NCBI GenBank assembly: GCA_963802195.1
Contig: CAWDHP010000003.1
Coordinates: forward strand, 19,456 to 43,455
DNA length: 24,000 nt
DNA from: an uncultured bacterium
Lineage (GTDB): Bacteria; Patescibacteriota; Minisyncoccia; Minisyncoccales; Minisyncoccaceae
Direction of reading: 5' to 3'
Shown: piece by piece, positions 3,187-12,908 of the stretch
Position numbering within the stretch: the stretch's first letter is position 1
Layout of the letters: each line of letters begins with the position of its first letter
Position numbers and translations under genes: made by a program
The notes under the pieces: generated by a model
What the model saw: only the letters and a program-made list of their open reading frames with translations
What the model was told of the DNA's origin: nothing
Database searches by the model: none

Positions 3187-3380
3187 GCTGTGATGGTCAG
3201 TCTGGAACCCCTAACCTTCAATCAGTGTAAGAGTTATTTGACTATTTAATATTGATTAATTTGAAGGGTCTCAGTCGGGATAAAATGAGACAAATGAGAC
3301 AGTATAAAAGGATATGTACCCTGTCTCGTGGACACTGTCTCGTTTTTTATAACTTACCATAATTTTTATCTTTGTGAAAG

Positions 3381-3418
3381 AATTGTAAGTAAAAAAAGAA
3401 GGAGATTTTTGATATCGA
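3381..3418 (-). terminator. intrinsic terminator after the radical SAM gene
   Basis: On the minus strand, AGGAGAT (3418-3412) pairs with ATCTCCT (3396-3390) and is followed by a TTCTTTTTTT tract. The same ATCTCCTTCTTTTTT tail recurs at 8769-8784. Confidence 0.6.
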
Positions 3419-3454
3419 AGTATCTCCTATGATTAACTTCGGAAGCTTAAAGCT

Positions 3455-4702
3455 TCAACCCTTAACTGTTTCCCACCCTTTTGGCAATGGCCAGAAAAGA
3501 TGGTTTTTCGCGTAAAATTTGAGATCGGCTAACGTGGGCGCGATGCGGTGGTTATTGAATAAGACCGATGTCTCAAATTCACAACCAACAGTTATTGCGA
3601 CATCTTCAGTCGCGACCTCATTTGGAGGTAACTCGACGAGGTACCCTTCCTCGGTCACGCGAATAGACAAAGGATGGTATCCCAACCATGTGAGGTATTT
3701 TTCAATCTCATCTGGATTAACTTTCCTCCACTGGCCGAGTTCTCCTGAGCGGGATAGGTTGTTGCGATTATATGCAATCGGCATACTGAACTCATCCCGA
3801 TACAATGTACCTGTATGCCGATGAACCCTAACATCGTACATGATTGAGGCACAGAGGACCGCCTTTTCAGCTTTTTCAGACAGCCAGTTTTTCATTTTGT
3901 AATACTGGTGTCCGCCCGGACTTGATTCTTCGTTTTGGTTGCCGTCGAGGAATCCTGTCTCGCGAAGCTTGTCGTTTTCGGGAGTAATGCCGAGATTTCC
4001 GATACTGCAACCACGATAGGTCAGAAATCTGATTCCCATCATTGCCAAATCGAAAATCGTTTCGACGCCCTTCATAACGTTATTATCGTTAAGTGGTCCA
4101 AGCATGACGGAAATCCGTCTTGGGGAAATTCCGGCATCGAGAAGCATCTGAAGACCCTCCAGTTGCTGTGGCGACTTAATCGGACTTCCCCTGAACTCTG
4201 GGCTGTCAGGCGTGATTGTAGTGCTAAACACTACACGAGGGTCATCCCCCCACGCTTCAAGCTGTTTTTGCCCGAATGGGGCACGGTGCAGAACGAAGAC
4301 TGGACTTTTGTGCGGAAATATCCGTAAAAATTCCGTAATTTCATTTACCTGCATGCTTCCGTCAGACCGAGCAGCCAGCATGATAATATCTCGGCCAGCC
4401 TTGAATAATTTGGACTGTTCAAGGAATCGTACCGCCTGTCTTGGCGTTGCAATCTTGCGGAGGCCTTTTCTGCCCTTCCCGATAGTATCAACAGAATTGT
4501 TGATCCATCGGTAATAACAGAAGTCGCACCCGATGGTGCATCCCATGATAAGGTCTCCATCCCAAGTGTACCGCCGTTTATAAAACGGAGCGGGGCAGAC
4601 TTGGCATTCTCCTTTCCATTCTGGCGGGGTGCCACCTAATAAAAGGTGTTCTCCGTTGACTATATCTGCCGCCCTTGCGGCTGAGAAATCTTCAAAAGAC
4701 AT
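3455..4702 (-). CDS. radical SAM enzyme, SplB/COG1533-like (spore-photoproduct-lyase-like family)
   Basis: MGCTIGCDFCYYRW contains CxxxCxxC in the GCxxGCxxCYxR context typical of SplB-like radical SAM proteins. AGGAGG lies 6 nt upstream of the ATG. The start abuts the upstream stop (TAAATG). Confidence 0.75.
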   Translation of the reverse strand: MSFEDFSAARAADIVNGEHLLLGGTPPEWKGECQVCPAPFYKRRYTWDGDLIMGCTIGCDFCYYRWINNSVDTIGKGRKGLRKIATPRQAVRFLEQSKLFKAGRDIIMLAARSDGSMQVNEITEFLRIFPHKSPVFVLHRAPFGQKQLEAWGDDPRVVFSTTITPDSPEFRGSPIKSPQQLEGLQMLLDAGISPRRISVMLGPLNDNNVMKGVETIFDLAMMGIRFLTYRGCSIGNLGITPENDKLRETGFLDGNQNEESSPGGHQYYKMKNWLSEKAEKAVLCASIMYDVRVHRHTGTLYRDEFSMPIAYNRNNLSRSGELGQWRKVNPDEIEKYLTWLGYHPLSIRVTEEGYLVELPPNEVATEDVAITVGCEFETSVLFNNHRIAPTLADLKFYAKNHLFWPLPKGWETVKG

Positions 4703-6457
4703 TTATACCTCCTGTCCCAAAATTGGGGCAATTTCTTTTTTCAATTTACGACCAAGACTAATGGTCTTCTTTGGAGTGATTCCGAACGTACGCATATAGG
4801 TCAAGCGACTAAGGCGTTCATCGGAATTATCCTTGCGGCCGTCTTTGCCGTAAAGAGCAGAAAGTCCATCATCAAGCATTTGGGCTGCGACACCATCCTG
4901 GTACGCAGCTTTGCAAATACTTTCAGAGCATCCTAATGCTTCAGCAATCATCAGCCGGAAAGAAGCCTCCTTCATCACTACCTTGCCCCAGAGTTCTGTC
5001 TGAGTCAGCTCGGTACTGAATTTAGGATTTTCTATTTCTACTTCAAGTCGAGCTGCGAGAATTACTTCACGAACGCGCTCCTCGAAAGTGGTTATACCGA
5101 GTTCGACGGCGATATTTCTTGCTCTTCCAAGGTCGTATGCCGCCTGCTCAATAGTTTGCCATACTCCGTTGATTACCCAGAACGCTGGCGCATAGTCACG
5201 GACTTCGTCCTCATCAATGAGGTCGTCCATGATTTTGAATGCCTTGCGCAGGTGTTCAACAAGCTGGCAGATTTCCTCAACATCCTTTTCGTTCCGTTTT
5301 CCAAGAACAGAGAGTTTTCTCACTTTCTTGGCGTAACTTCCGGAAGTCGGGACATCTATCCATGGCCGCGGGTTTTCAAGACTCTTTTGGTAGAAAGAGT
5401 CGATTGCCCCGACTTTTTCTAACCAATCCATTCTATTAACCTCCACTTTTGTAGCTCCGCGATTCTTTGCCACTTGCACTGCAGCTTGCTGCACAAGCTT
5501 CTTCGTGGCCTCGACTGATTTAGAGGCGAATATCCACGATAATACTTCGTGCATTCCGGAAATTAACCTGTCAGGAAGATTGATGTGGCAAGTATTACCT
5601 TCGTATTTTACCGAACACCCTGTGGTCTTGACGGTAAAGTCAGCAAAGCTCACCACATCAAGGGCGCCGATTTTGCGTAAGAGCTCCAGACGTTCCGAAT
5701 CAACAGAATCGTCAAAGTCCCCGCGCCTCTCAGCTTCCCTCTGTCGTTCATCTTCATCTCTCCTAACAGAGATAACGATTACTGGCCGTTGTAAAGCATA
5801 GCTCGCGTATATGATTTGTTCGCGAGACTTGATGCCATCAACAACCATGAACGGCGAATCGTCATTTACCGAAGAAACAAACCTGCGGGCGACAACAATT
5901 TTGTCTTTCGCCTCAACCTCTTCGGTGAAGCACTGGACATTGGTCCAATTCATTTCGCCATAACGGGATTCTATCTCCTGCTTTACATAGTCTCCCCATT
6001 TGTAGACGGAGAATCCGTCCATCTGGGAAAAAATGTTCCGCAGAAGTGTCTTCCCTGATGCGGGCAGTCCGACCAGTGCAATCATGTACTTATCAATGTG
6101 ATAAGTATCTTGCTCTGATACACTTTCTTTCGGCACAATCCCCTCTTTCTTCAAGAGGTAATTTTGATGTCGATACGCCAGCAATGTTTTTTCGTTGCCG
6201 ACATACTTTACCGGCCCCTTAATACCTAAACTCCTTAACGATTTCTCGACATGGAGCTGGGTTAAGGCCGTGGTCAAATTCCGGTCAAAGACAAGAATCT
6301 CTCCGTACTTCTTTTTTTGTGGAAAGTTCCACCAGGTTACTTCCCTCTGATCCATGCGAGAGAAGTCTGCAATTGCAACCTCCCATTCGGGAGAAAGAAT
6401 ATTGCAATTCAATAACTCCACGCCTGACTTGGCGATTAAAACCGCAAGGGTTTTCAT
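4703..6457 (-). CDS. fusion protein: unknown N-domain, P-loop nucleotide kinase (adenylate/dephospho-CoA-kinase-like) and a divergent polyprenyl-synthase-like C-domain
   Basis: Walker A in IALVGLPASGKT. The block VVDGIKSREQ...RRDEDERQREAERRGDFDD resembles small archaeal-type nucleotide kinases. The C-terminal MDDLIDEDEVRDYAPAFW (DDxxDxxxxR...P) and GVAAQMLDDGLSALYGKDGRKDNSDE resemble the two Asp-rich motifs of trans-prenyl synthases, with the second degenerate. I prefer the ATG at 6457 (GAGG 7 nt upstream) over the TTG at 6499 used by the ORF track. Confidence 0.6.
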   Translation of the reverse strand: MKTLAVLIAKSGVELLNCNILSPEWEVAIADFSRMDQREVTWWNFPQKKKYGEILVFDRNLTTALTQLHVEKSLRSLGIKGPVKYVGNEKTLLAYRHQNYLLKKEGIVPKESVSEQDTYHIDKYMIALVGLPASGKTLLRNIFSQMDGFSVYKWGDYVKQEIESRYGEMNWTNVQCFTEEVEAKDKIVVARRFVSSVNDDSPFMVVDGIKSREQIIYASYALQRPVIVISVRRDEDERQREAERRGDFDDSVDSERLELLRKIGALDVVSFADFTVKTTGCSVKYEGNTCHINLPDRLISGMHEVLSWIFASKSVEATKKLVQQAAVQVAKNRGATKVEVNRMDWLEKVGAIDSFYQKSLENPRPWIDVPTSGSYAKKVRKLSVLGKRNEKDVEEICQLVEHLRKAFKIMDDLIDEDEVRDYAPAFWVINGVWQTIEQAAYDLGRARNIAVELGITTFEERVREVILAARLEVEIENPKFSTELTQTELWGKVVMKEASFRLMIAEALGCSESICKAAYQDGVAAQMLDDGLSALYGKDGRKDNSDERLSRLTYMRTFGITPKKTISLGRKLKKEIAPILGQEV

Positions 6458-7148
6458 TCTAAACCTCGTAATCGTAAGTTGCCATGTTTCAGGCAACAAA
6501 CTAAAGATGTAAATCTCCAGATTGTTACCTGAAACTCTACCTATTTAATTTTCAAACAGCATCCTCCTGCTTCTCTCGGCTCCAATCTCTCCATTGGAAG
6601 CCGAGAGTATAGCAAGGAGGTTTCTGGAAACGAAGCGGGTTAAACTTCCTTTCCAGCCAATCTCCCTACTAGAAGACGGCAAACGATATTAGCCAGTTGA
6701 TAATCTTTTCATTTATACTCTCTCCAGTATGATGACGATTACCTAACATTCTTGCTAAAAGCTAATATCGGACAGGCAGTAATTGGTGTTTTACTGCTTT
6801 AGGACCTTAAGTCTATCACCATAATAGACTTTCGTTCCTTTGATTTTTAACAAAGAGCTATTCTTCTCGAAATTCTTCCGAGAAGATTTTTAAAGATTTT
6901 ATCTTTAACATATCTTTCCGCAAAAAAACGGCTGAGAAATCTCTTCAAAGGACAGACTCAAGATAGAATCCTTCCTTAAAAGAGATCTCCCAGCCGTTCG
7001 AATAAACAACTAGTATCTATTACTCCATTCGGAATGCAGACAGACCTCAGCCTGATTCCTTATCCCTTTCGGGAAAGAAGTAACGGGTCCATTATTTAAC
7101 CTCGCGGACGAGCGAAGAACTAACATCTAATTTAATGAACTCACTTAC
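6458..7148 (-). ncRNA. large structured leader RNA, copy A (paralogue of 10445-11180)
   Basis: About 690 nt between the promoter at 7155-7183 and the kinase-fusion ATG, with no conserved ORF. Hairpins are dense, including a long hairpin at 6929-6996 followed by U7. The core 6614-6846 aligns with 10575-10785 and shows compensatory stem changes. The 5' end is inferred from the promoter only. Confidence 0.5.
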
Positions 7149-7154
7149 ACGATA

Positions 7155-7183
7155 ACTATATACTACTATCTGCTTCTTGTCAA
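7155..7183 (-). promoter_or_regulatory. sigma70-type promoter driving leader A and the kinase-radical SAM operon
   Basis: Minus strand reads TTGACA (7183-7178), a 17-nt spacer, then TATAGT (7160-7155). Confidence 0.65.
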
Positions 7184-7190
7184 CCCCCAA

Positions 7191-7199
7191 TTATCCACA
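7191..7199 (+). promoter_or_regulatory. perfect DnaA-box 9-mer TTATCCACA, 7 nt upstream of the -35 element
   Basis: Exact match to the consensus TTATCCACA. The same 9-mer occurs at the same spacing at 11223-11231 and 11338-11346. Confidence 0.45.
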
Positions 7200-7200
7200 T

Positions 7201-7253
7201 CCTGCTTTCGTCCTTTTGGACTCATCAGCTCGGACACACATCCGAGGAGCAAG
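7201..7253 (-). ncRNA. type III hammerhead ribozyme (HHR-1)
   Basis: Minus strand reads CUUGC-UC/CUCGGA-UGUGUG-UCCGAG-CUGAUGA-GUCC-AAAA-GGAC-GAAA-GCAGG. The full CUGAUGA...GAAA core is present. Stems I and II are closed and stem III is open (CUUGC/GCAGG). Predicted cleavage is after C7247. Confidence 0.85.
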
Positions 7254-7317
7254 TGTAATTTATTTTTTTAAAAAATTACTAAAAAATTAACCCTACTATA
7301 CTGCCCAAGTAATTGGC

Positions 7318-8523
7318 TTAAACATTTTTTACTGTAAATCCAGCATTTTTGAATCCCTCAGCCAAGGACGTTGGTTCATCCTTAATCTGAATATCGTTAA
7401 GACCGAAGATCTTTTCAATCTCGACCTTGGATGGAGTAATGGGTGTGATTCCGTCCCATGGCTCCGTGCGAATGCCGTTGGCTACCCACCGTACATAGTG
7501 GTGGATTCCTCCGGCATTAGCGAGTACATAGGATGTTATTTCTCCATCCTTGTACTCTATCCACGCAGAGTGCCAATCGGGCGCTTCAACGATAGCTAGA
7601 ATACTCTCGCTGTTGAATGGTCTCTCGCAGGATTCCTTTATTCGGGTGATACCCGATTCAGAAATTTTCTCGAACCGGTAGCGCTTGCCACCACCCGGAC
7701 CGATGCAGAGAGATATTAATGCTTTCGTGCCAGGAATCAGTGTGCCAGCTTGCACACTGCTGACGCCACCGATCTTATCGCCCATGACGACGGGAATGGC
7801 AATGCCCCAGTTTTTTACGGTTTGCTCTATCGGTTGCCACTGTGTGAAGTGGTTAACCAGAACATTCATTTCGGGGCTGATTGCTTCCTCAAGTTCTTCT
7901 GCTAGTTTAATCGCGGACTGAACGTCCTCGTGAAGCTCTCCAGTAAACTGCTTTACAACTTCCGTTACCTCGGGATTATCATCAGTGGCGATTGTTTGGC
8001 AGAGTTCTTCGCGGGTCATTGCGACTGCGTTGAAACTCCTAGTCACAATGAGGTAGCGCTGACCGTAGCCTTTGTATGATCCCCCGCAGATGTTCACGAT
8101 GAACACCGATGGAGATTCAATATGCCACAGCTCATCAGTTCCGCCACCAATTCTACCGGCATCGCCGAAGGCATAAGAACCAGTGACTAACAGTTTAGCT
8201 TCGCCACCCTTGTGGACGACATTACCCTCTGTCCCACGGGTGTACGTTCCATACGTGTTTATTCGTATGAGTACACCGCGTTGGTTGGGGTTGCTTTTGG
8301 TCAATATGCAATGCTTCCTTTCCTCCCCAAAGAGGAAATATCCGACATCATCGGGTCCGGACGGTTGTTGTCCGGAACGATTAGAAATTCGGACTTCTTC
8401 AAGCCACCGGCCTCGGCCAGCCTCTCCCAAAGAGAACGGAATCTCCTGGGTCCTTCCGTGCATGTCAATTATTTTCATTCCTTTCACTCCATTCTTGCCC
8501 CTAAAGCGTATCTTCGTGGGCAT
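7318..8523 (-). CDS. hypothetical protein (386-401 aa), no recognisable family
   Basis: Long intact ORF in GC-rich cargo. The start is either ATG 8523 (no SD) or ATG 8478 (GGAGTGAAAGGA upstream). Gly-rich loops are present (GDAGRIGGGTD, CGGSYKGYG, GPGGGKRY). Confidence 0.6.
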   Translation of the reverse strand: MPTKIRFRGKNGVKGMKIIDMHGRTQEIPFSLGEAGRGRWLEEVRISNRSGQQPSGPDDVGYFLFGEERKHCILTKSNPNQRGVLIRINTYGTYTRGTEGNVVHKGGEAKLLVTGSYAFGDAGRIGGGTDELWHIESPSVFIVNICGGSYKGYGQRYLIVTRSFNAVAMTREELCQTIATDDNPEVTEVVKQFTGELHEDVQSAIKLAEELEEAISPEMNVLVNHFTQWQPIEQTVKNWGIAIPVVMGDKIGGVSSVQAGTLIPGTKALISLCIGPGGGKRYRFEKISESGITRIKESCERPFNSESILAIVEAPDWHSAWIEYKDGEITSYVLANAGGIHHYVRWVANGIRTEPWDGITPITPSKVEIEKIFGLNDIQIKDEPTSLAEGFKNAGFTVKNV

Positions 8524-8768
8524 GAATTATGTTTGCTCATTAAGAGCGTACAATTTTAAAATATTATTTAAGACTGTGCGCTCTCAACAAACTCTATTTA
8601 AAGAACTATTATCAATTAAATCAGCAGTGAACCGTAAAGCAATTAGCGAGGGGTTTGAATGTATTATATTCTGGAGAGAGATTAGAATATATCCAATACC
8701 TCTCCTGCTTTACGGATCGCTACTGATTGTTTCTCAATTCTGAATCCACTTTTATTAAAATGAACTCG

Positions 8769-8816
8769 GAAAAAAGAAGGAGATAATGTTTAAACATTTA
8801 ACGGGTCTCCATCTCC
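8769..8816 (-). terminator. intrinsic terminator after the P-loop NTPase gene
   Basis: On the minus strand, GGAGAT (8816-8811) pairs with ATCTCC (8784-8779). The inner palindrome AATGTTTAAACATT is followed by TTCTTTTTTC. The 5' arm overlaps the stop codon. Confidence 0.5.
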
Positions 8817-9403
8817 GTTATCAGCCAATCTGCAAACTGACTAATAATACCCTGATAGGGATCCTTTGGACCGTCTCGGTCCAAATTACAGATAATCCCT
8901 CGAATGGGTTCGGCAGAAAAATCCGCCGAAGATCCTACATTGTTATCAAGCGTCCCATCCGCCCGCTTGATAAGCCGAGACTCAAATAATGCGAGAGTCT
9001 CACACCCTTCTTCTTTGGCAAAATTCTGCCAAAGCTCATTCTCTTCTTCTTTCGAAGAAAGAAGAATAAGGTGCGTTGACCGCTTGAGAATCTCGGCATT
9101 CTCAGCAGTCCGTCTTCCCCCAAGATCTAGGAGGACCAAGGGAAACGATTTTCCCAAGTTCTCAATGGACTTCAGAGTGAAACCCATGAATTCTTGAGAA
9201 AATGCTCCTTTCCTCCGAATTTCAGAGACAAGGCGCGGGTCAGTCTCTGCTGACCACATACCTTCTCCATCGGGACATGCCCTTTGGAGAAAGACTCTCG
9301 TTGCCTTCCTTGCCAAAAGCTGACGATATAGCTCGGCAAGGAAGACTGACTTCCCTGAATGTGGAGGCCCTCCCACGGCCACCACCATTTTTTTAGTGGC
9401 CAT
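8798..9403 (-). CDS. P-loop NTPase of the type found fused to Csx3 (Csx3-associated AAA/kinase-like)
   Basis: Walker A in VAVGGPPHSGKS and Walker B in LVLLDLGG. AAGGAGG SD. The gene lies directly downstream of the Csx3 gene. The link to Csx3-AAA fusions is recalled from the literature, not searched. Confidence 0.65.
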   Translation of the reverse strand: MATKKMVVAVGGPPHSGKSVFLAELYRQLLARKATRVFLQRACPDGEGMWSAETDPRLVSEIRRKGAFSQEFMGFTLKSIENLGKSFPLVLLDLGGRRTAENAEILKRSTHLILLSSKEEENELWQNFAKEEGCETLALFESRLIKRADGTLDNNVGSSADFSAEPIRGIICNLDRDGPKDPYQGIISQFADWLITEMETR

Positions 9404-9462
9404 AGTAGCCTCCTTTAGTGCTTTTTATACTTTTGCACAAAAAGTTTTTTCATTCCCTGATT

Positions 9463-9765
9463 TTACTCAGGGAACGGTATTACATTTCCGACCTGCTGGT
9501 CGGGAGAGTGGGTGGCAACGACCACTGCGCCAAGGCGCGGATCGCGAACTGCCAACCACGGTGTGGCATGGGCAGCATGCACTAACATGCTGTATAGCCA
9601 TACCGGACCCCGTCCGTCAAGGACGATCGGGGTTTCTCCACCGAGCTCACCGAGCTCAGTGACCGCTTCCTGAGATTCCTGGGGAGTTGTTACTCCGCCC
9701 GGAATCTCGAATCCTACCACCCGGATGCCGTTAGCATCACGGGTGGAAAATACTGGTTTCGACAT
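9463..9765 (-). CDS. csx3: Csx3 (Crn3) family protein, distant-CARF ring-nuclease fold
   Basis: LDGRGPVWLYSMLVHAAHATPWLAVRDPRLGAVVVATHSP closely matches the block I recall from A. fulgidus Csx3 (SGRGPIWLHCFLAHKYHHTPFVAVYDPRLGAVVVQSHS). I prefer ATG 9765 (GGGAGG 9 nt upstream) over the TTG at 9792. Confidence 0.7.
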   Translation of the reverse strand: MSKPVFSTRDANGIRVVGFEIPGGVTTPQESQEAVTELGELGGETPIVLDGRGPVWLYSMLVHAAHATPWLAVRDPRLGAVVVATHSPDQQVGNVIPFPE

Positions 9766-9954
9766 TTTCCATACCTCCCGTTTCACCTTCAACGGGGACT
9801 TTGCTCTGCATCATCAAAAGGTGACTTTGATGATGACTCCCTTCATGGGAAGCGAGCTGACTACTTTTATAAATAATCAATTCGCTTTCCATAAAGCAAG
9901 AGTTAAATATTCAAACCTATTTTCCTTTTAATGAGCAACTTATATTTTACAATT

Positions 9955-10007
9955 CTGCTTTTCGTCCTTTTGGACTCATCAGCTCGGATACACATCCGAG
10001 AAAGCAA
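9955..10007 (-). ncRNA. type III hammerhead ribozyme (HHR-2)
   Basis: Minus strand reads UUGCU-UU/CUCGGA-UGUGUA-UCCGAG-CUGAUGA-GUCC-AAAA-GGAC-GAAA-AGCAG. The core is identical to HHR-1. Stem III is UUGCU/AGCAG. Predicted cleavage is after U10001. Confidence 0.85.
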
Positions 10008-10060
10008 TTTGAAGAGGAAGTTTTATATAGCGAGCCCTCTTCGTACCCGCTTTACCCTGG

Positions 10061-10444
10061 TTACCTTCCAGTCGGGAAAATAACCATTTTCCAGGGATCC
10101 TCCCTGTCTGAAACATAGACAGGACGGAATCCCTTCTCCTCTACGACCTTCTGAAAGGCCGGGAGGAGAAACCCTGCCTCTGGCGGGAAGTCCATTAGGA
10201 CCTCCCTCGTTGCCTCATCGGCAAAGAGGAAGGCCTCCTTCATGGCCCTTCCCAGCCAATCGCCGAAACGCTCTGCGCGCTCGACGATTTGTTGCCCTTC
10301 CACCACGTCCATGTGGCGGAAGAGAATCATTTCCTCCAGTTCCACCCGCAGGTGGACTGGAACTTCAGTCAGCGAAAATCGCTGGTGAAGTTTCTCCGCT
10401 CCCTCACGGGGGAGCGGGCTTACCCTTAAGATACTCTTCTGCAT
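10061..10444 (-). CDS. hypothetical protein (127 aa)
   Basis: GC-rich intact ORF. I prefer ATG 10444 (AAGGGGAG about 10 nt upstream) over the TTG at 10495. No recognisable motif. Confidence 0.5.
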   Translation of the reverse strand: MQKSILRVSPLPREGAEKLHQRFSLTEVPVHLRVELEEMILFRHMDVVEGQQIVERAERFGDWLGRAMKEAFLFADEATREVLMDFPPEAGFLLPAFQKVVEEKGFRPVYVSDREDPWKMVIFPTGR

Positions 10445-11180
10445 AATAATGACTCCCCTTCTTTTTCGGTAGAAGTAAACCGGTGCTTTTTCCAAGCAAC
10501 AATCTAGAGATATAAGTCTACAGATTGTTACTTAGAATGATTTTAAAATGAACCACTGACACTCCCTATCTCGTAAGGAGGTTTCTGGAAACGAAGTGGG
10601 TTAGGCCTCTTTTCCAGCCGATCTCCTTACTAGAAGAACGGTATACGATTTTTTAACCTTAGGCCATAACTCTCTCCAGACTTTCTTTGTCGCCTAAAAT
10701 TAATATATCGGACAGGCAAGCAATTGGTTTTTGCTGCTTTAGGACCTTGACCTATCACCATAATAGATCGCGTTCCTTTGATTTTGGTTTAAAGAACTAT
10801 ATCTTCTTTCTTGCGAAAGAAGGTGATGGATATGAGTCTTGTATTGTTTTAGCTCATTTCCATAACTTTCCTTCGTAATATATTGTAAAAGAGGGGGGAG
10901 ATTCAGAGTCCTAGGTGTAAACCCAAGGTTTAGGACGCTGTTCGGCAAGTCTCCCCGCTGCCGCTTCCGAATGGGTCTTCGGAAGAAAGTGGTAAAGATG
11001 ATACATATTCATCTCCACAACTTTCTTTCAAAAGAAAAAGGGGTAACAAATGTTGGGATACTGCATGAAAAGAGTACCTCAACACTTATTACCCCATAAC
11101 GGAATTAAAAGCGTTTATTGGCAATGCCTCTCTCCTTGCATTGACTTGGCTTATTTAATTTTTAATAACTTCATCCTAAC
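10445..11180 (-). ncRNA. large structured leader RNA, copy B (paralogue of 6458-7148)
   Basis: About 735 nt between the promoter at 11187-11215 and the ORF127 ATG. The core 10575-10785 is homologous to 6614-6846. Two long hairpins are followed by U-tracts (about 11036-11095 and 10895-10956). ORF-track ORFs in this region are not conserved in copy A. Confidence 0.5.
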
Positions 11181-11186
11181 AACTAT

Positions 11187-11215
11187 ACTATGACATACTA
11201 TCTATTTTCTGTCAA
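11187..11215 (-). promoter_or_regulatory. sigma70-type promoter P1 for leader B
   Basis: Minus strand reads TTGACA (11215-11210), a 17-nt spacer, then CATAGT (11192-11187). Confidence 0.55.
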
Positions 11216-11222
11216 GCTCCAG

Positions 11223-11231
11223 TTATCCACA
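11223..11231 (+). promoter_or_regulatory. perfect DnaA-box 9-mer TTATCCACA, 7 nt upstream of the P1 -35 element
   Basis: Exact 9-mer at the same spacing as at 7191-7199. Confidence 0.45.
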
Positions 11232-11301
11232 CCCTGATTTTTCTATGAATAACAAGGCTTTTCTTCTTTTCTGCCTCTCCTTTCTTTATCCTTACACCTA
11301 T

Positions 11302-11330
11302 ACCATAGCATAGTAGTATAATTATGTCAA
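11302..11330 (-). promoter_or_regulatory. sigma70-type promoter P2 (tandem with P1)
   Basis: Minus strand reads TTGACA (11330-11325), a 17-nt spacer, then TATGGT (11307-11302). Confidence 0.5.
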
Positions 11331-11337
11331 CACTCAG

Positions 11338-11346
11338 TTATCCACA
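11338..11346 (+). promoter_or_regulatory. perfect DnaA-box 9-mer TTATCCACA, 7 nt upstream of the P2 -35 element
   Basis: Exact 9-mer at the same spacing as the other two copies. Confidence 0.45.
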
Positions 11347-11451
11347 CCCTAGCTATCAAGTTTTTCAGTCTCCACTTTGTCTACATATGGGGTCTGGACT
11401 CCCTAGAGCTATTGCGTCATCCTTGTCCTTGAGATAATAAATAAAAACAAT

Positions 11452-12759
11452 ATGGAACGAATAATAAAAAGTATAAGTCAGTCCCCTATTCTTGATGCTC
11501 CAATCAAGTATTGTCTCTATGCTAGGAAATCGACTGAAGCGGAGGACAAGCAAGCTCTTTCAATAGAATCTCAAGTAAAGGAAATGTTATCTCTAGCCGA
11601 AAGAGACAACTTAGATATAGTTGAAATTAAAAGAGAATCGCATTCTTCAAAGGAAGTCGGACAAAGAGTAGTTTTCAACGAAATGATTAAAGAAATAAGA
11701 GAAGGAAAATATAATGGAATATTAACATGGGCGCCAGATAGGTTAAGCAGAAATGCTGGGGATCTAGGATCGATAGTAGATTTGATGGATCAGAAGCTTC
11801 TTATCGAAATAAGAACATACGGACAGAAGTTTACCAATAATCCAAATGAGAAGTTTCTTTTAATGATATTAGGCTCTCAAGCCAAACTAGAGAATGACAA
11901 TAAAGCAGTCAATGTTAAGCGAGGATTAAGGACTAGATGCGAAATGGGATTAAGACCAGGAGTTGCACCGACTGGCTATCTGAATGAAAAGCATGTTGAT
12001 AAGAAATGCCAATGCAGAATAGATTCTAAAAGAGCACCTATTATTAAACAGATGTTTGAAAAGGTGGCCAACGAGCAATGGAGCGGCAGGAAGATATTCC
12101 GATGGCTGATTGATATTGGATTCAAGACTAAAACCGGCAAGCCTTTAGTTCTTGCCAATATTTATCTCATCTTAAGAAATCCTTTTTATTATGGAGAATT
12201 TGAATACCCAATTAAAAGCGGTAATTGGTATATTGGTAAACATGTTCCGATTATAAATAAAGAGCTGTTTGATAAAGTGCAAATGACCCTCGGTGATAAT
12301 TTCATACCCAAAACAGAAAGCAAGGAATTCGCTTTTACCAAATTAATCAAATGCGGATATTGCGGATCAGGAATATCAGCTGATGAAAAGTTCAGAAAAT
12401 TAAAAAACGGCGGTACTAACCGTCATGTCTATTATTTTTGTACCAAGGCGAGAAATATTGATTGCAAAAATCAGCCGATAGATGAGGCAAACCTAATAAA
12501 CGAACTAGCAGAACTTGTAGACAAGATTGATTTAGATGAACTAGGGATAAGGGATAAAATTGAAAAAGAATTAATGAGATTTAATAAATTTAGAATCGGA
12601 GTGCTTGGGCATAAAAAAGAAGTAAGCAATTCAGATATTGATATCCGTAACTATGCTAAGTATTTATTAAAAGAAGGAACAATTACCGAAAAGCGAGAAC
12701 TCCTATCATTTTTAAAAAGTAAACTGGTATTAAAAGACAGAAAGATTATTCTTGGATAA
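11452..12759 (+). CDS. large serine recombinase (resolvase/invertase N-domain, recombinase domain and zinc ribbon)
   Basis: YCLYARKSTEAEDKQALSIESQ carries the catalytic Ser motif. Also present are GILTWAPDRLSRN and a C-terminal CGYCG...YYFC zinc-ribbon-like motif. The gene is AT-rich (line 12181-12240 has 17/60 G+C) and has no SD, so it is host-like, unlike the cargo. Confidence 0.85.
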   Translation: MERIIKSISQSPILDAPIKYCLYARKSTEAEDKQALSIESQVKEMLSLAERDNLDIVEIKRESHSSKEVGQRVVFNEMIKEIREGKYNGILTWAPDRLSRNAGDLGSIVDLMDQKLLIEIRTYGQKFTNNPNEKFLLMILGSQAKLENDNKAVNVKRGLRTRCEMGLRPGVAPTGYLNEKHVDKKCQCRIDSKRAPIIKQMFEKVANEQWSGRKIFRWLIDIGFKTKTGKPLVLANIYLILRNPFYYGEFEYPIKSGNWYIGKHVPIINKELFDKVQMTLGDNFIPKTESKEFAFTKLIKCGYCGSGISADEKFRKLKNGGTNRHVYYFCTKARNIDCKNQPIDEANLINELAELVDKIDLDELGIRDKIEKELMRFNKFRIGVLGHKKEVSNSDIDIRNYAKYLLKEGTITEKRELLSFLKSKLVLKDRKIILG

Positions 12760-12770
12760 GATTGCTAACT

Positions 12771-12799
12771 AAAAATCACTGGATAAACCAGTGATTTTC
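12771..12799 (+). terminator. intrinsic terminator after the recombinase gene
   Basis: AAATCACTGG (12773-12782) pairs with CCAGTGATTT (12788-12797) around the loop ATAAA. The stem is flanked by A and T runs. Confidence 0.6.
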
Positions 12800-12837
12800 A
12801 TGTATGCATCTCAGTCACCTGACTTAGCATAAGACGG

Positions 12838-12908
12838 CTGCGGGACTAGGATTCGGACCTAGATTGGGCGAGTCAAAGTCGCCAGTCCTACCGTTAGACG
12901 ATCCCGCA
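12838..12908 (-). tRNA. tRNA-Gln (anticodon UUG)
   Basis: Manual cloverleaf: acceptor UGCGGGA/UCCCGCA with the U1-A72 pair typical of bacterial tRNA-Gln; D arm GUCU-AACGGUA-GGAC; anticodon arm GGCGA-CUUUGAC-UCGCC; T arm CUAGG-UCCGAAU-CCUAG; discriminator G. CCA is not encoded. The T-loop reads UCC instead of the usual UUC. Confidence 0.8.

Follow-up and report, generated by a model that had tools for sequence, protein, structure and literature searches.

In the known cis-acting antitermination systems, exemplified by putL/putR of HK022 and nutL/nutR of lambda, each transcription unit carries one copy of the RNA site. The put RNAs (~70 nt, two stem-loops) and the EAR element of Bacillus (~120 nt) are small, and structured non-coding RNAs of more than 600 nt are rare in bacteria, where new classes have tended to reveal unexpected biology. 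To our knowledge, almost nothing has been established about gene regulation or mobile elements in the bacteria of the candidate phyla radiation (CPR). Here, we analysed a stretch of 24 000 nt (the window; contig CAWDHP010000003.1, GenBank assembly GCA_963802195.1, positions 19 456–43 455) from an uncultured bacterium of the family Minisyncoccaceae, in which a leader of 650–750 nt with about 18 helices precedes the gene ORF127 (copy B, within 10445–11346) and a related leader precedes a gene for a 598 aa protein (copy A). Judged from sequence comparison, the two leaders almost certainly belong to a genuine family of conserved structured RNAs.

As with put and EAR, the leader is a promoter-proximal structured RNA lying upstream of terminators in its own unit, found at the head of each of two operons and independent of the cargo that follows. 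It differs from them in having no sequence or Rfam similarity to either and in that its strong terminators are internal, ahead of the most conserved part; antitermination is, for this leader, our proposal. With GOLLD, ROOL, OLE and HEARO/omega RNA it shares a size above 600 nt, many conserved helices with invariant loops and a function that is not evident from context, and, like RNAs of the GOLLD/ROOL type, it is found on a horizontally moving element beside a tRNA gene. However, it matches no Rfam model, always lies 5' of protein genes, contains terminators and is so far known only from the CPR.

Two long stretches of the minus strand are free of genes, one before ORF127 (copy B) and one before the 598 aa gene (copy A). 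The features of copy B, for which minus-strand coordinates are used throughout, are the following.

11346–11338, minus strand: 9-mer TGTGGATAA at promoter P1
11330–11302, minus strand: promoter P1 (TTGACA, 17 nt spacer, TATGGT, extended TG)
11231–11223, minus strand: 9-mer TGTGGATAA at promoter P2
11215–11187, minus strand: promoter P2 (TTGACA, 17 nt spacer, CATAGT, extended TG)
11143–11122, minus strand: hairpin H1 (CAAUGC, invariant loop AAGGAGAGAG, GCAUUG)
11095–11040, minus strand: T1, a 56 nt hairpin GGGGUAAUAAGUGUUG...CAACAUUUGUUACCCC (GGGGTAA...TTACCCC), −29.8 kcal/mol
11039–11030, minus strand: U-tract of T1, UUUUUCUUUU, intrinsic-terminator-like
11027–10983, minus strand: hairpin H3, with two bases in common with H4
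10985–10964, minus strand: hairpin H4, CUUCCGAA/UUCGGAAG as RNA (CTTCCGAA/TTCGGAAG read as DNA)
10956–10895, minus strand: T2/H5, a branched hairpin GGGGAGA...UCUCCCC, −22.7 kcal/mol (10958–10887 with its tail)
10863–10826, minus strand: hairpin H6, with three compensatory pairs
10822–10803, minus strand: hairpin H7, CCUUCUUUC GCAA GAAAGAAG
10779–10573, minus strand: core common to copies A and B, helices P1–P6 and P5'
Core, minus strand: helices P1/P2, a hairpin with the invariant loop UUAUGGUGA
Core, minus strand: helix P3, loop ..ACCAAUU; the invariant GCCUGUCCGAUA is also in the core
Core, minus strand: helix P4, 12 bp around GGAGAGAG
10641–10618, minus strand: helix P5', upstream UCUUCU with AGGAGA, closed by NCG and CGN
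10630–10623 with 10580–10573, minus strand: helix P5, GUAAGGAG paired with CUCCUUAC
Core, minus strand: helix P6, CUGGAAA...UUUCCAG, loop ..UAACCC.
10553–10541, minus strand: motif GUUCAUUUUAAAA
10537–10490, minus strand: 20 bp hairpin ahead of the Shine–Dalgarno (SD) sequence (the pre-SD hairpin), a candidate RNase III-type processing site
10461–10442, minus strand: SD GAAGGGGAG and ATG of ORF127

An initial annotation of the window had placed two promoter modules 115 nt apart ahead of about 735 nt of structured RNA. In a promoter scan of 6300–11700, promoters P1 and P2, which are indeed 115 nt apart, and the copy A promoter ranked as the three best sigma-70-like sites, and the scan found no promoter-like site between the core and the ORF127 ATG. 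With the predicted start from P2 at ~11180 and the ATG at 10444–10442, the leader measures ~736 nt, in agreement with the earlier figure. The hairpins and U-tracts named in that annotation were recovered at, or within a few bases of, the positions given for them, and its claim of a pre-SD hairpin and a core in common with copy A held up on repeat families and alignment. Each of the three promoters is preceded by GGGTGTGGATAAC, which contains the 9-mer, a perfect match to the complement of the DnaA-box consensus TTATCCACA. Within the window the 9-mer occurs three times, compared with an expectation of 0.14; all three occurrences are at these promoters, a short and fixed distance upstream of the −35 box.

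Copy B RNA from ~11185 to 10445 (741 nt) folds with a minimum free energy of −237 kcal/mol, as against −174±9 kcal/mol for dinucleotide shuffles (z=−7.0), and none of 20 shuffles was as stable. A structure for leaders of this type was built from an alignment of eight of them, using RNAalifold followed by hand curation, and comprises ~18 helices and 160 pairs, with 97.7 % paired. Both partners have changed in 26 pairs, compared with 10.6±2.1 in shuffled alignments (none of 500 reached 26), and when partners were slid by 1–3 columns as a control only 1–8 double-changed pairs were seen. The invariant G-U pairs fit the minus strand only and, hence, the RNA has the same polarity as the genes.

In the 5' domain, H1 is 100 % paired with two compensatory pairs, the leader L5B having CGGUGG/CCAUCG. 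The 16 outer pairs of T1 are likewise 100 % paired in the type-B alignment, and the T1 hairpin with its U-tract is present in all eight leaders, including L12B and L5B, where later hairpins (the H3–H4 module) have been deleted. T2 can be aligned with the strong terminator of copy A, and its tail, CCUCUUUU, is a weak U-tract. Two long-range pairings proposed by RNAalifold were not retained. A helix closing the 5' and 3' ends, UAGGAUGAA with UUCAUUUUA, was dropped because a check by hand found that the changes in L3B are not compensatory, and a pairing of the H1 loop with a distant CUCCUU was displaced by local helices, which covary.

The segment 10490–10785 matches ~6487–6830 of copy A (repeat families D2, D3, D8 and D10, and alignment), the two copies having in common a core of ~300 nt and the pre-SD hairpin. 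Full cores were found by nhmmer in 14 distinct copies, and across these, which include both types described below, compensatory pairs are seen in P2, P3, P5 and the pre-SD hairpin; within the core P2 and P3 have four each and P4 has three. P5, which joins the SD-like GUAAGGAG to the anti-SD-like CUCCUUAC, shows 98 % pairing and two compensatory pairs. In P5' pairing is complete (100 %), and the outer pair is CG in 7 of the 14 sequences, AU in 4 and UA in 3. The inner parts of P5 and P5' are mutually exclusive, though both are conserved, and as the covarying part of P5' (NCG/CGN) lies outside P5, two alternative folds and a single H-type pseudoknot both fit. The pre-SD hairpin (helix 18) is 100 % paired, with five compensatory pairs and strand-specific G-U pairs, and is an independent module that recurs alone before other cassettes. 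Some loop sequences do not vary in any of the 14 copies, namely UUAUGGUGA, ACCAAUU, UAACCC and the GGAGAG found in a number of loops (those of H1, P4 and two type-A hairpins), which points to tertiary contacts or to factors bound there. The loops of P2 and P3 may touch through UGGUG–CACCA complementarity, a pairing that shows no covariation.

Relatives were sought with a 22-mer pattern from the core, which retrieved two GTDB genomes, a Saccharibacteria chromosome (L001) and a Minisyncoccales contig (L002) that carries a close relative of the window's island; a degenerate form of the 22-mer retrieved seven metagenome contigs. Two more, L012 and L016, were added via contigs encoding homologues of the gene behind the Saccharibacteria leader. 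Full cores are present in L001/L006 (a metagenome contig identical to L001), L002, L003, L004, L005, L007, L008, L009, L012 and L016. The initial annotation had raised the possibility that the similarity was peculiar to this genome, but the structure is conserved outside it, with covariation, homologues occur in at least ten independent contigs from two lineages, Saccharibacteria and Minisyncoccales, and the known distribution is limited to CPR bacteria. Identity to the window is 71–88 % at the nucleotide level over 700–890 nt, while the flanking genes are unrelated.

The same annotation had proposed variable 5' modules joined to a constant 3' part, and this was not borne out. The copies fall into two paralogous types that have a common core and different 5' domains, each conserved over its full length within the type, and the 5' half is therefore not a freely variable module. 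Type B comprises copy B of the window, L2B, L3B, L5B, L6B, L8B, L12B and L16B, and type A comprises copy A of the window, L2A, L6A, L4, L9 and L8A, from which the core has been deleted. Wherever both are present (the window, L002, L006 and L008) the order is B then A. The features of copy A are the following.

7254–6500, minus strand: copy A, made up of a hammerhead (7254–7200), promoter with 9-mer (7199–7155), 5' domain, terminator, core and pre-SD hairpin
7199–7191, minus strand: 9-mer TGTGGATAA
7183–7155, minus strand: copy A promoter
6996–6929, minus strand: type-A terminator, −44 kcal/mol, followed by U7–8 and invariant in six of six copies

The type-A copy of L008 (L008 9420–9990) retains the hammerhead, promoter, 5' domain, terminator and pre-SD hairpin and has lost P1–P4. 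The promoter modules are conserved with the leaders: the 9-mer is found in L002, L003, L005, L006 and L008, promoter P1 with its 9-mer is kept in L002, L003 and L008, and P2 in L002, L003, L005, L006, L008, L012 and L016. DnaA, or a factor of like specificity, may thus be a regulator of these promoters.

None of the 4227 models of Rfam 15, among them those for GOLLD, ROOL, T-box, riboswitches, 6S, tmRNA, RNase P and rRNA, matched 10445–11346 (E up to 5) or eight homologous loci (E up to 0.5), the permissive searches returning only chance-level matches to miRNA and snoRNA models. A sensitive blastn search against 50 697 phage and 72 556 plasmid records gave no match, nor did four pattern scans of the viral contigs in IMG/VR, and we found no published description of this RNA. 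The family is hence previously undescribed, though a leader that contains terminators is, as such, of a known kind. It departs from known leaders in being so large, in having two paralogous types, in being coupled to hammerheads and processing hairpins, and in acting as the conserved backbone of an exchangeable gene array. It may also be under-represented in assemblies, as contigs L010 and L011 end ~600 nt upstream of an MJ1673-like gene and L016 is chimeric with N runs at 1034–1046, breaks in the leader region that fit assemblers collapsing the repeated A and B leaders and their hairpins.

At every homologous locus the leader is preceded by a conserved promoter and followed, in unchanged orientation, by the first gene, but the cargo varies. 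Behind type B are genes of the MJ1673 family (PF27247) in L003, L006, L008, L012, L014, L015 and L016, ORF127 in the window and L002, and a membrane protein gene in L005. Behind type A are the 598 aa kinase-like gene, a Cys-rich 227 aa gene, or a set with APH-like, AAA_33 kinase, DHH and CYTH genes, and later cassettes include a class-V aminotransferase, radical SAM proteins, a MoxR-like ATPase and a DEAH helicase. Ten loci with distant MJ1673 homologues (L017–L026, one of them from a phage) have no leader. The constant backbone consists of the promoters with the DnaA-box motif, the leaders, type III hammerheads and the 20 bp pre-SD hairpins, and the points where homology between loci stops coincide exactly with the borders of modules. 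In L002 the 401 aa gene of the window has been replaced (between 7294 and 8597 of the window), in L001 a junction RNA is joined directly to a B-type pre-SD hairpin, forming a chimeric junction, and in L012 a Cys-rich mini-gene of 44 codons (L012 1930–2090) stands right after the core and before the junction modules. Just upstream of the leader promoters of L012 there is also an IS30-like transposase gene (HTH_38 and rve domains; L012 240–1193). In the Saccharibacteria-like contigs the array is upstream of greA–lysS and no recombinase gene is nearby.

The cassettes are separated by conserved junctions made up of a hairpin and a U-tract, such as 8816–8779 followed by UUCUUUUUU. The promoter scan revealed no convincing promoter behind the junctions and, as these resemble terminators, expression of the distal genes should depend on read-through. 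The junction in question belongs to a third conserved non-coding module.

8524–8816, minus strand: non-coding module between the AAA and 401 aa genes, with a terminator-like hairpin and UUCUUUUUU

This module also contains a GAGUUCAUUUUAAUAAAAGUGGAUUC hairpin and 23 nt inverted repeats (8619–8641 and 8706–8728), and is 92–98 % identical to segments of L001 and L008. Leaders from Saccharibacteria and Minisyncoccales remain 71–88 % identical, while the genes that follow them are freely swapped. Selection and horizontal transfer at this locus preserve non-coding RNA modules, not proteins.

For the role of the leader we tentatively favour, as plausible though short of probable, a cis-acting RNA at the entrance to the operon that controls read-through of its own built-in terminators and is then cut from the mRNA. 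The reading is based on the position of the leader, its conserved built-in terminators, the need for read-through further down, its indifference to cargo and the fact that two transcription units of a single element each begin with one copy. Transcription, control of termination and read-through, processing, and a signal or factor acting on the RNA are what we infer from these features. Strong sigma-70 promoters, two in tandem in B, each with the DnaA-box-like 9-mer upstream of its −35 box, would start transcription, and the nascent RNA would fold into the type-specific 5' domain, with T1 and T2 (type B) or the single terminator (type A) stopping many polymerases. The 5' domain, with the common core, would then set the level of read-through at the leader terminators and at the later junctions, either by attenuation or by processive antitermination. 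Pairing of GUAAGGAG in the core with the upstream UCUUCU or with the downstream CUCCUUAC may add a conformational or translational gate. An RNase III-type cut at the 20 bp pre-SD hairpin would part the leader from the coding RNA, and the hammerheads would cut the transcript after ORF127 and before copy A. If leaders of this type do control read-through or processing, they would be by far the largest and most elaborate elements of that kind, and would give organisms that are difficult to manipulate a portable front end for expression.

Attenuation stays a live hypothesis because the hairpins and U-tracts inside the leader are conserved. In this respect the leader resembles riboswitches and T-boxes, which also have a structured 5' domain followed by an intrinsic terminator with a U-tract, and the possible alternative pairings of P5 and P5' are a further likeness. 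However, it is 3–5 times larger, a brief search found no antiterminator in it and there is no Rfam match; as the genes downstream are unrelated between loci, an operon-specific metabolite, and with it a gene-specific ligand riboswitch, is unlikely. The leaders of rRNA operons and the nut regions of lambda (boxB–boxA–boxC, Nus factors, RNase III stems) are comparable in other ways, namely tandem strong promoters ~115 nt apart, a long untranslated structured leader and a hairpin followed by a boxA-like run, here GUUCUUUAAAC at 10797–10787 and, in type A, UGYUGUUUGAAAA. A long perfect stem right before the functional RNA or SD is likewise seen in the lambda N leader. There is, however, no homology to rRNA, and boxA matches are at chance level. 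With the consensus GYTCTTTAANA (PMC5725501) and up to one mismatch, the window contains 10 matches where 9.06 are expected. The run at 10797–10787 agrees with the consensus at 10 of 11 positions, while most homologues read GCACAUU or GCUCAUU there, and a boxA/Nus site is kept as a lead only, because such matches occur at chance frequency and this one is poorly conserved.

Several other observations count against control of read-through. No conserved antiterminator competing with T1 or with the type-A terminator was found in a brief search (folding of the aligned 5' parts, once with the 3' strand of T1 included and once with it removed), and the U-tract of T2 is poor. The core lies downstream of the terminators that it would have to influence, and activity must therefore reside in the 5' domain unless the core does something else; similarly, as the type-A copy of L008 has no P1–P4, the core must be dispensable there or that copy is decaying. 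We also know of no antitermination RNA as elaborate as a core of 200–300 nt with many invariant loops. Finally, a long hairpin followed by a U-tract could just as well mark where a separate small RNA ends.

This last point leads to a different role, a stand-alone functional RNA that is co-transcribed with the genes and acts in trans as a protein-binding scaffold, sponge or decoy, which we regard as doubtful but a serious contender. The active form might be a short RNA with its 3' end at T1 (~150 nt when started from P2) or, in type A, at the single terminator (~220–245 nt), and strong conserved terminators do lie close behind strong promoters; or it might be an RNA of ~0.65 kb freed at the pre-SD hairpin, whose 20 bp stand exactly between the RNA and the SD, with hammerheads at the unit boundaries. 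Size and complexity beyond those of known cis regulators, and the many loops invariant in all 14 copies, which are typical of tertiary structure or protein partners, also fit such a role. However, the leader has never been found alone, being always directly upstream of genes and in the same orientation, and no partner protein is conserved across the loci. The repeated GGAGAG or SD-like loops could act by titrating 30S subunits or a protein that binds GGA, but a hand count of ~15 GGA motifs against ~12 expected indicates no clear enrichment.

It is unlikely, though compatible with the operon-entry role that we favour, that the core acts as a gate for translation or as a platform for loading ribosomes. 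In such a scheme the anti-SD mimic ACCUCCUUA, which equals the 3' end of 16S rRNA, would sequester the purine-rich SD of the cassette behind it except when captured by the decoy SD GUAAGGAG in P5, with P5' (UCUUCU–AGGAGA) deciding the state. A mechanism acting on ACCUCCUUA would serve any cargo that has an SD, which fits the variable genes, and P5 and P5' are both conserved with mutually exclusive inner parts; but the same data fit a static H-type pseudoknot equally well. The mimic is 110–150 nt from the real SD with the 20 bp hairpin in between, no covariation links the two, and the 5' domain and terminators are left unexplained.

On a wider view, the leaders, hammerheads, junction RNAs and pre-SD hairpins would form the backbone of an RNA-punctuated array of exchangeable cassettes, a functional analogue of an integron held together by RNA modules, that spreads between CPR lineages and brings with it genes connected with nucleotide signalling and with the accessory functions of type III CRISPR. 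The leader would be a large sensor or scaffold that switches on the whole array, for example on infection or in response to a cyclic nucleotide, rather than a simple attenuator, and we consider this full proposal improbable. The array recalls integrons, in which a recombinase gene likewise diverges from a promoter that reads into promoterless exchangeable cassettes with conserved imperfect palindromes between them. However, the recombinase of the island is of the serine type, not a tyrosine recombinase such as IntI with its attI site, and is absent beside the Saccharibacteria arrays. The island palindromes lie 5' of the genes, whereas attC sites are 3', and show RNA-type G-U covariation, and neither the 0.7 kb leader RNA nor the hammerheads have a counterpart in integrons.

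Selection on the DNA itself, as a replication origin or primer-RNA region or as recombination sites with the pre-SD palindrome recognized by the recombinase, is very improbable. The three perfect DnaA-box 9-mers (0.14 expected) lie beside strong promoters, the serine recombinase gene is divergent from promoter P1 and adjoins it, and cassette borders coincide with junction or hairpin modules (window versus L002 at 7294 and 8597; L001; L012). A precedent for RNA-primed replication is provided by extrachromosomal prophages (PMC7157519). Nevertheless, the compensatory changes and strand-specific G-U pairs over 160 pairs point to selection on a single-stranded transcript of the gene strand. Moreover, the Saccharibacteria loci have leaders with no adjacent recombinase, and the fixed distance from 9-mer to −35 box resembles promoter regulation and not an origin cluster.

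That the region is a recoded or decayed gene has next to no credibility, since the short sense-strand ORFs (43–69 codons) are set against 9–13 stop codons in every frame, indels that are not multiples of three, such that ORFs starting at one alignment column end differently, and substitutions that are compensatory in helices. No conserved ORF or leader peptide was found in any frame among the homologous leaders. A CUG-initiated frame (LEKRPNPLRF) over P6 was considered and rejected; all of its variation falls at loop positions, and in L6B it is truncated.

Both leaders lie in an island segment of ~9.3 kb (roughly 3200–12830) with 47–52 % G+C, in a host genome of low G+C content (~33 %). All of the island genes other than the recombinase gene are on the minus strand.

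12836–12908: tRNA-Gln gene, abutted by the serine recombinase gene at the island end
11452–12759, plus strand: large serine recombinase gene (Resolvase, Recombinase and Zn_ribbon_recom domains), divergent from promoter P1 and adjoining it
10061–10444, minus strand: ORF127, the first gene behind the copy B leader, with no family annotation
9463–9792, minus strand: 109 aa gene, Csx3 ring-nuclease homologue
8798–9403, minus strand: 201 aa gene, AAA partner of Csx3, matching Csx3–AAA models
7318–8523, minus strand: 401 aa gene, no annotation
4703–6499, minus strand: 598 aa gene behind copy A, P-loop kinase-like with a weak polyprenyl-synthase-like region
3455–4702, minus strand: 415 aa gene behind copy A, weak radical SAM match and a CxxxCxxC motif

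Direct repeats of the att type were looked for at the island ends and none were found, and neither the 598 aa nor the 415 aa protein matched a named family above threshold. The island has a split Csx3 ring nuclease and AAA ATPase and a possible MJ1673-type ORF127, while the window contains no CRISPR-Cas genes. ORF127 is possibly a divergent member of the MJ1673 family (PF27247); hhalign gave a suggestive match (probability 64 %, E=6.5e-5, with a common PVYxxSxRE motif) and BLASTP comparison with the family was not significant. MJ_1673 and Csx3 have both been described as type III CRISPR accessory genes (PMC3973734). The Csx3/AAA genes and ORF127 could be anti-CRISPR or cyclic-oligoadenylate-related cargo, and the Csx3/MJ1673 link suggests a tie to cyclic-oligoadenylate conflict systems.

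The two hammerhead motifs of the window are as follows.

9952–10007, minus strand: predicted type III hammerhead after ORF127, cleavage predicted between 10001 and 10000
7200–7254, minus strand: predicted type III hammerhead just before the copy A promoter, cleavage predicted between 7247 and 7246

They are 98 % identical in the core (repeat D6, 7206–7246 in the second copy). Read by eye, both have the full core, CUGAUGAG (CUGAUGA) and CGAAA, a helix I of 6–7 bp, a helix II of GUCC/GGAC (UCC–AAAA–GGA) and an open helix III of 5 bp, and the triplet at the cleavage site ends in UC in the 7200–7254 copy and in UU in the 10007–9952 copy. The Rfam Hammerhead_3 model (RF00008) scored 34.1 bits (E=1.3e-4) at 7200–7254 and 21.3 bits at 9954–9994, below its gathering score of 48.5 bits, and the motif is also found in L002, L005 and L009 (33–36.5 bits). 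The two predicted cuts would excise a Csx3–AAA–401 aa mRNA of ~2.75 kb with 5'-OH and 2',3'-cyclic phosphate ends, a substrate for circularization, and the same arrangement of hammerheads is seen in L002 and L009.

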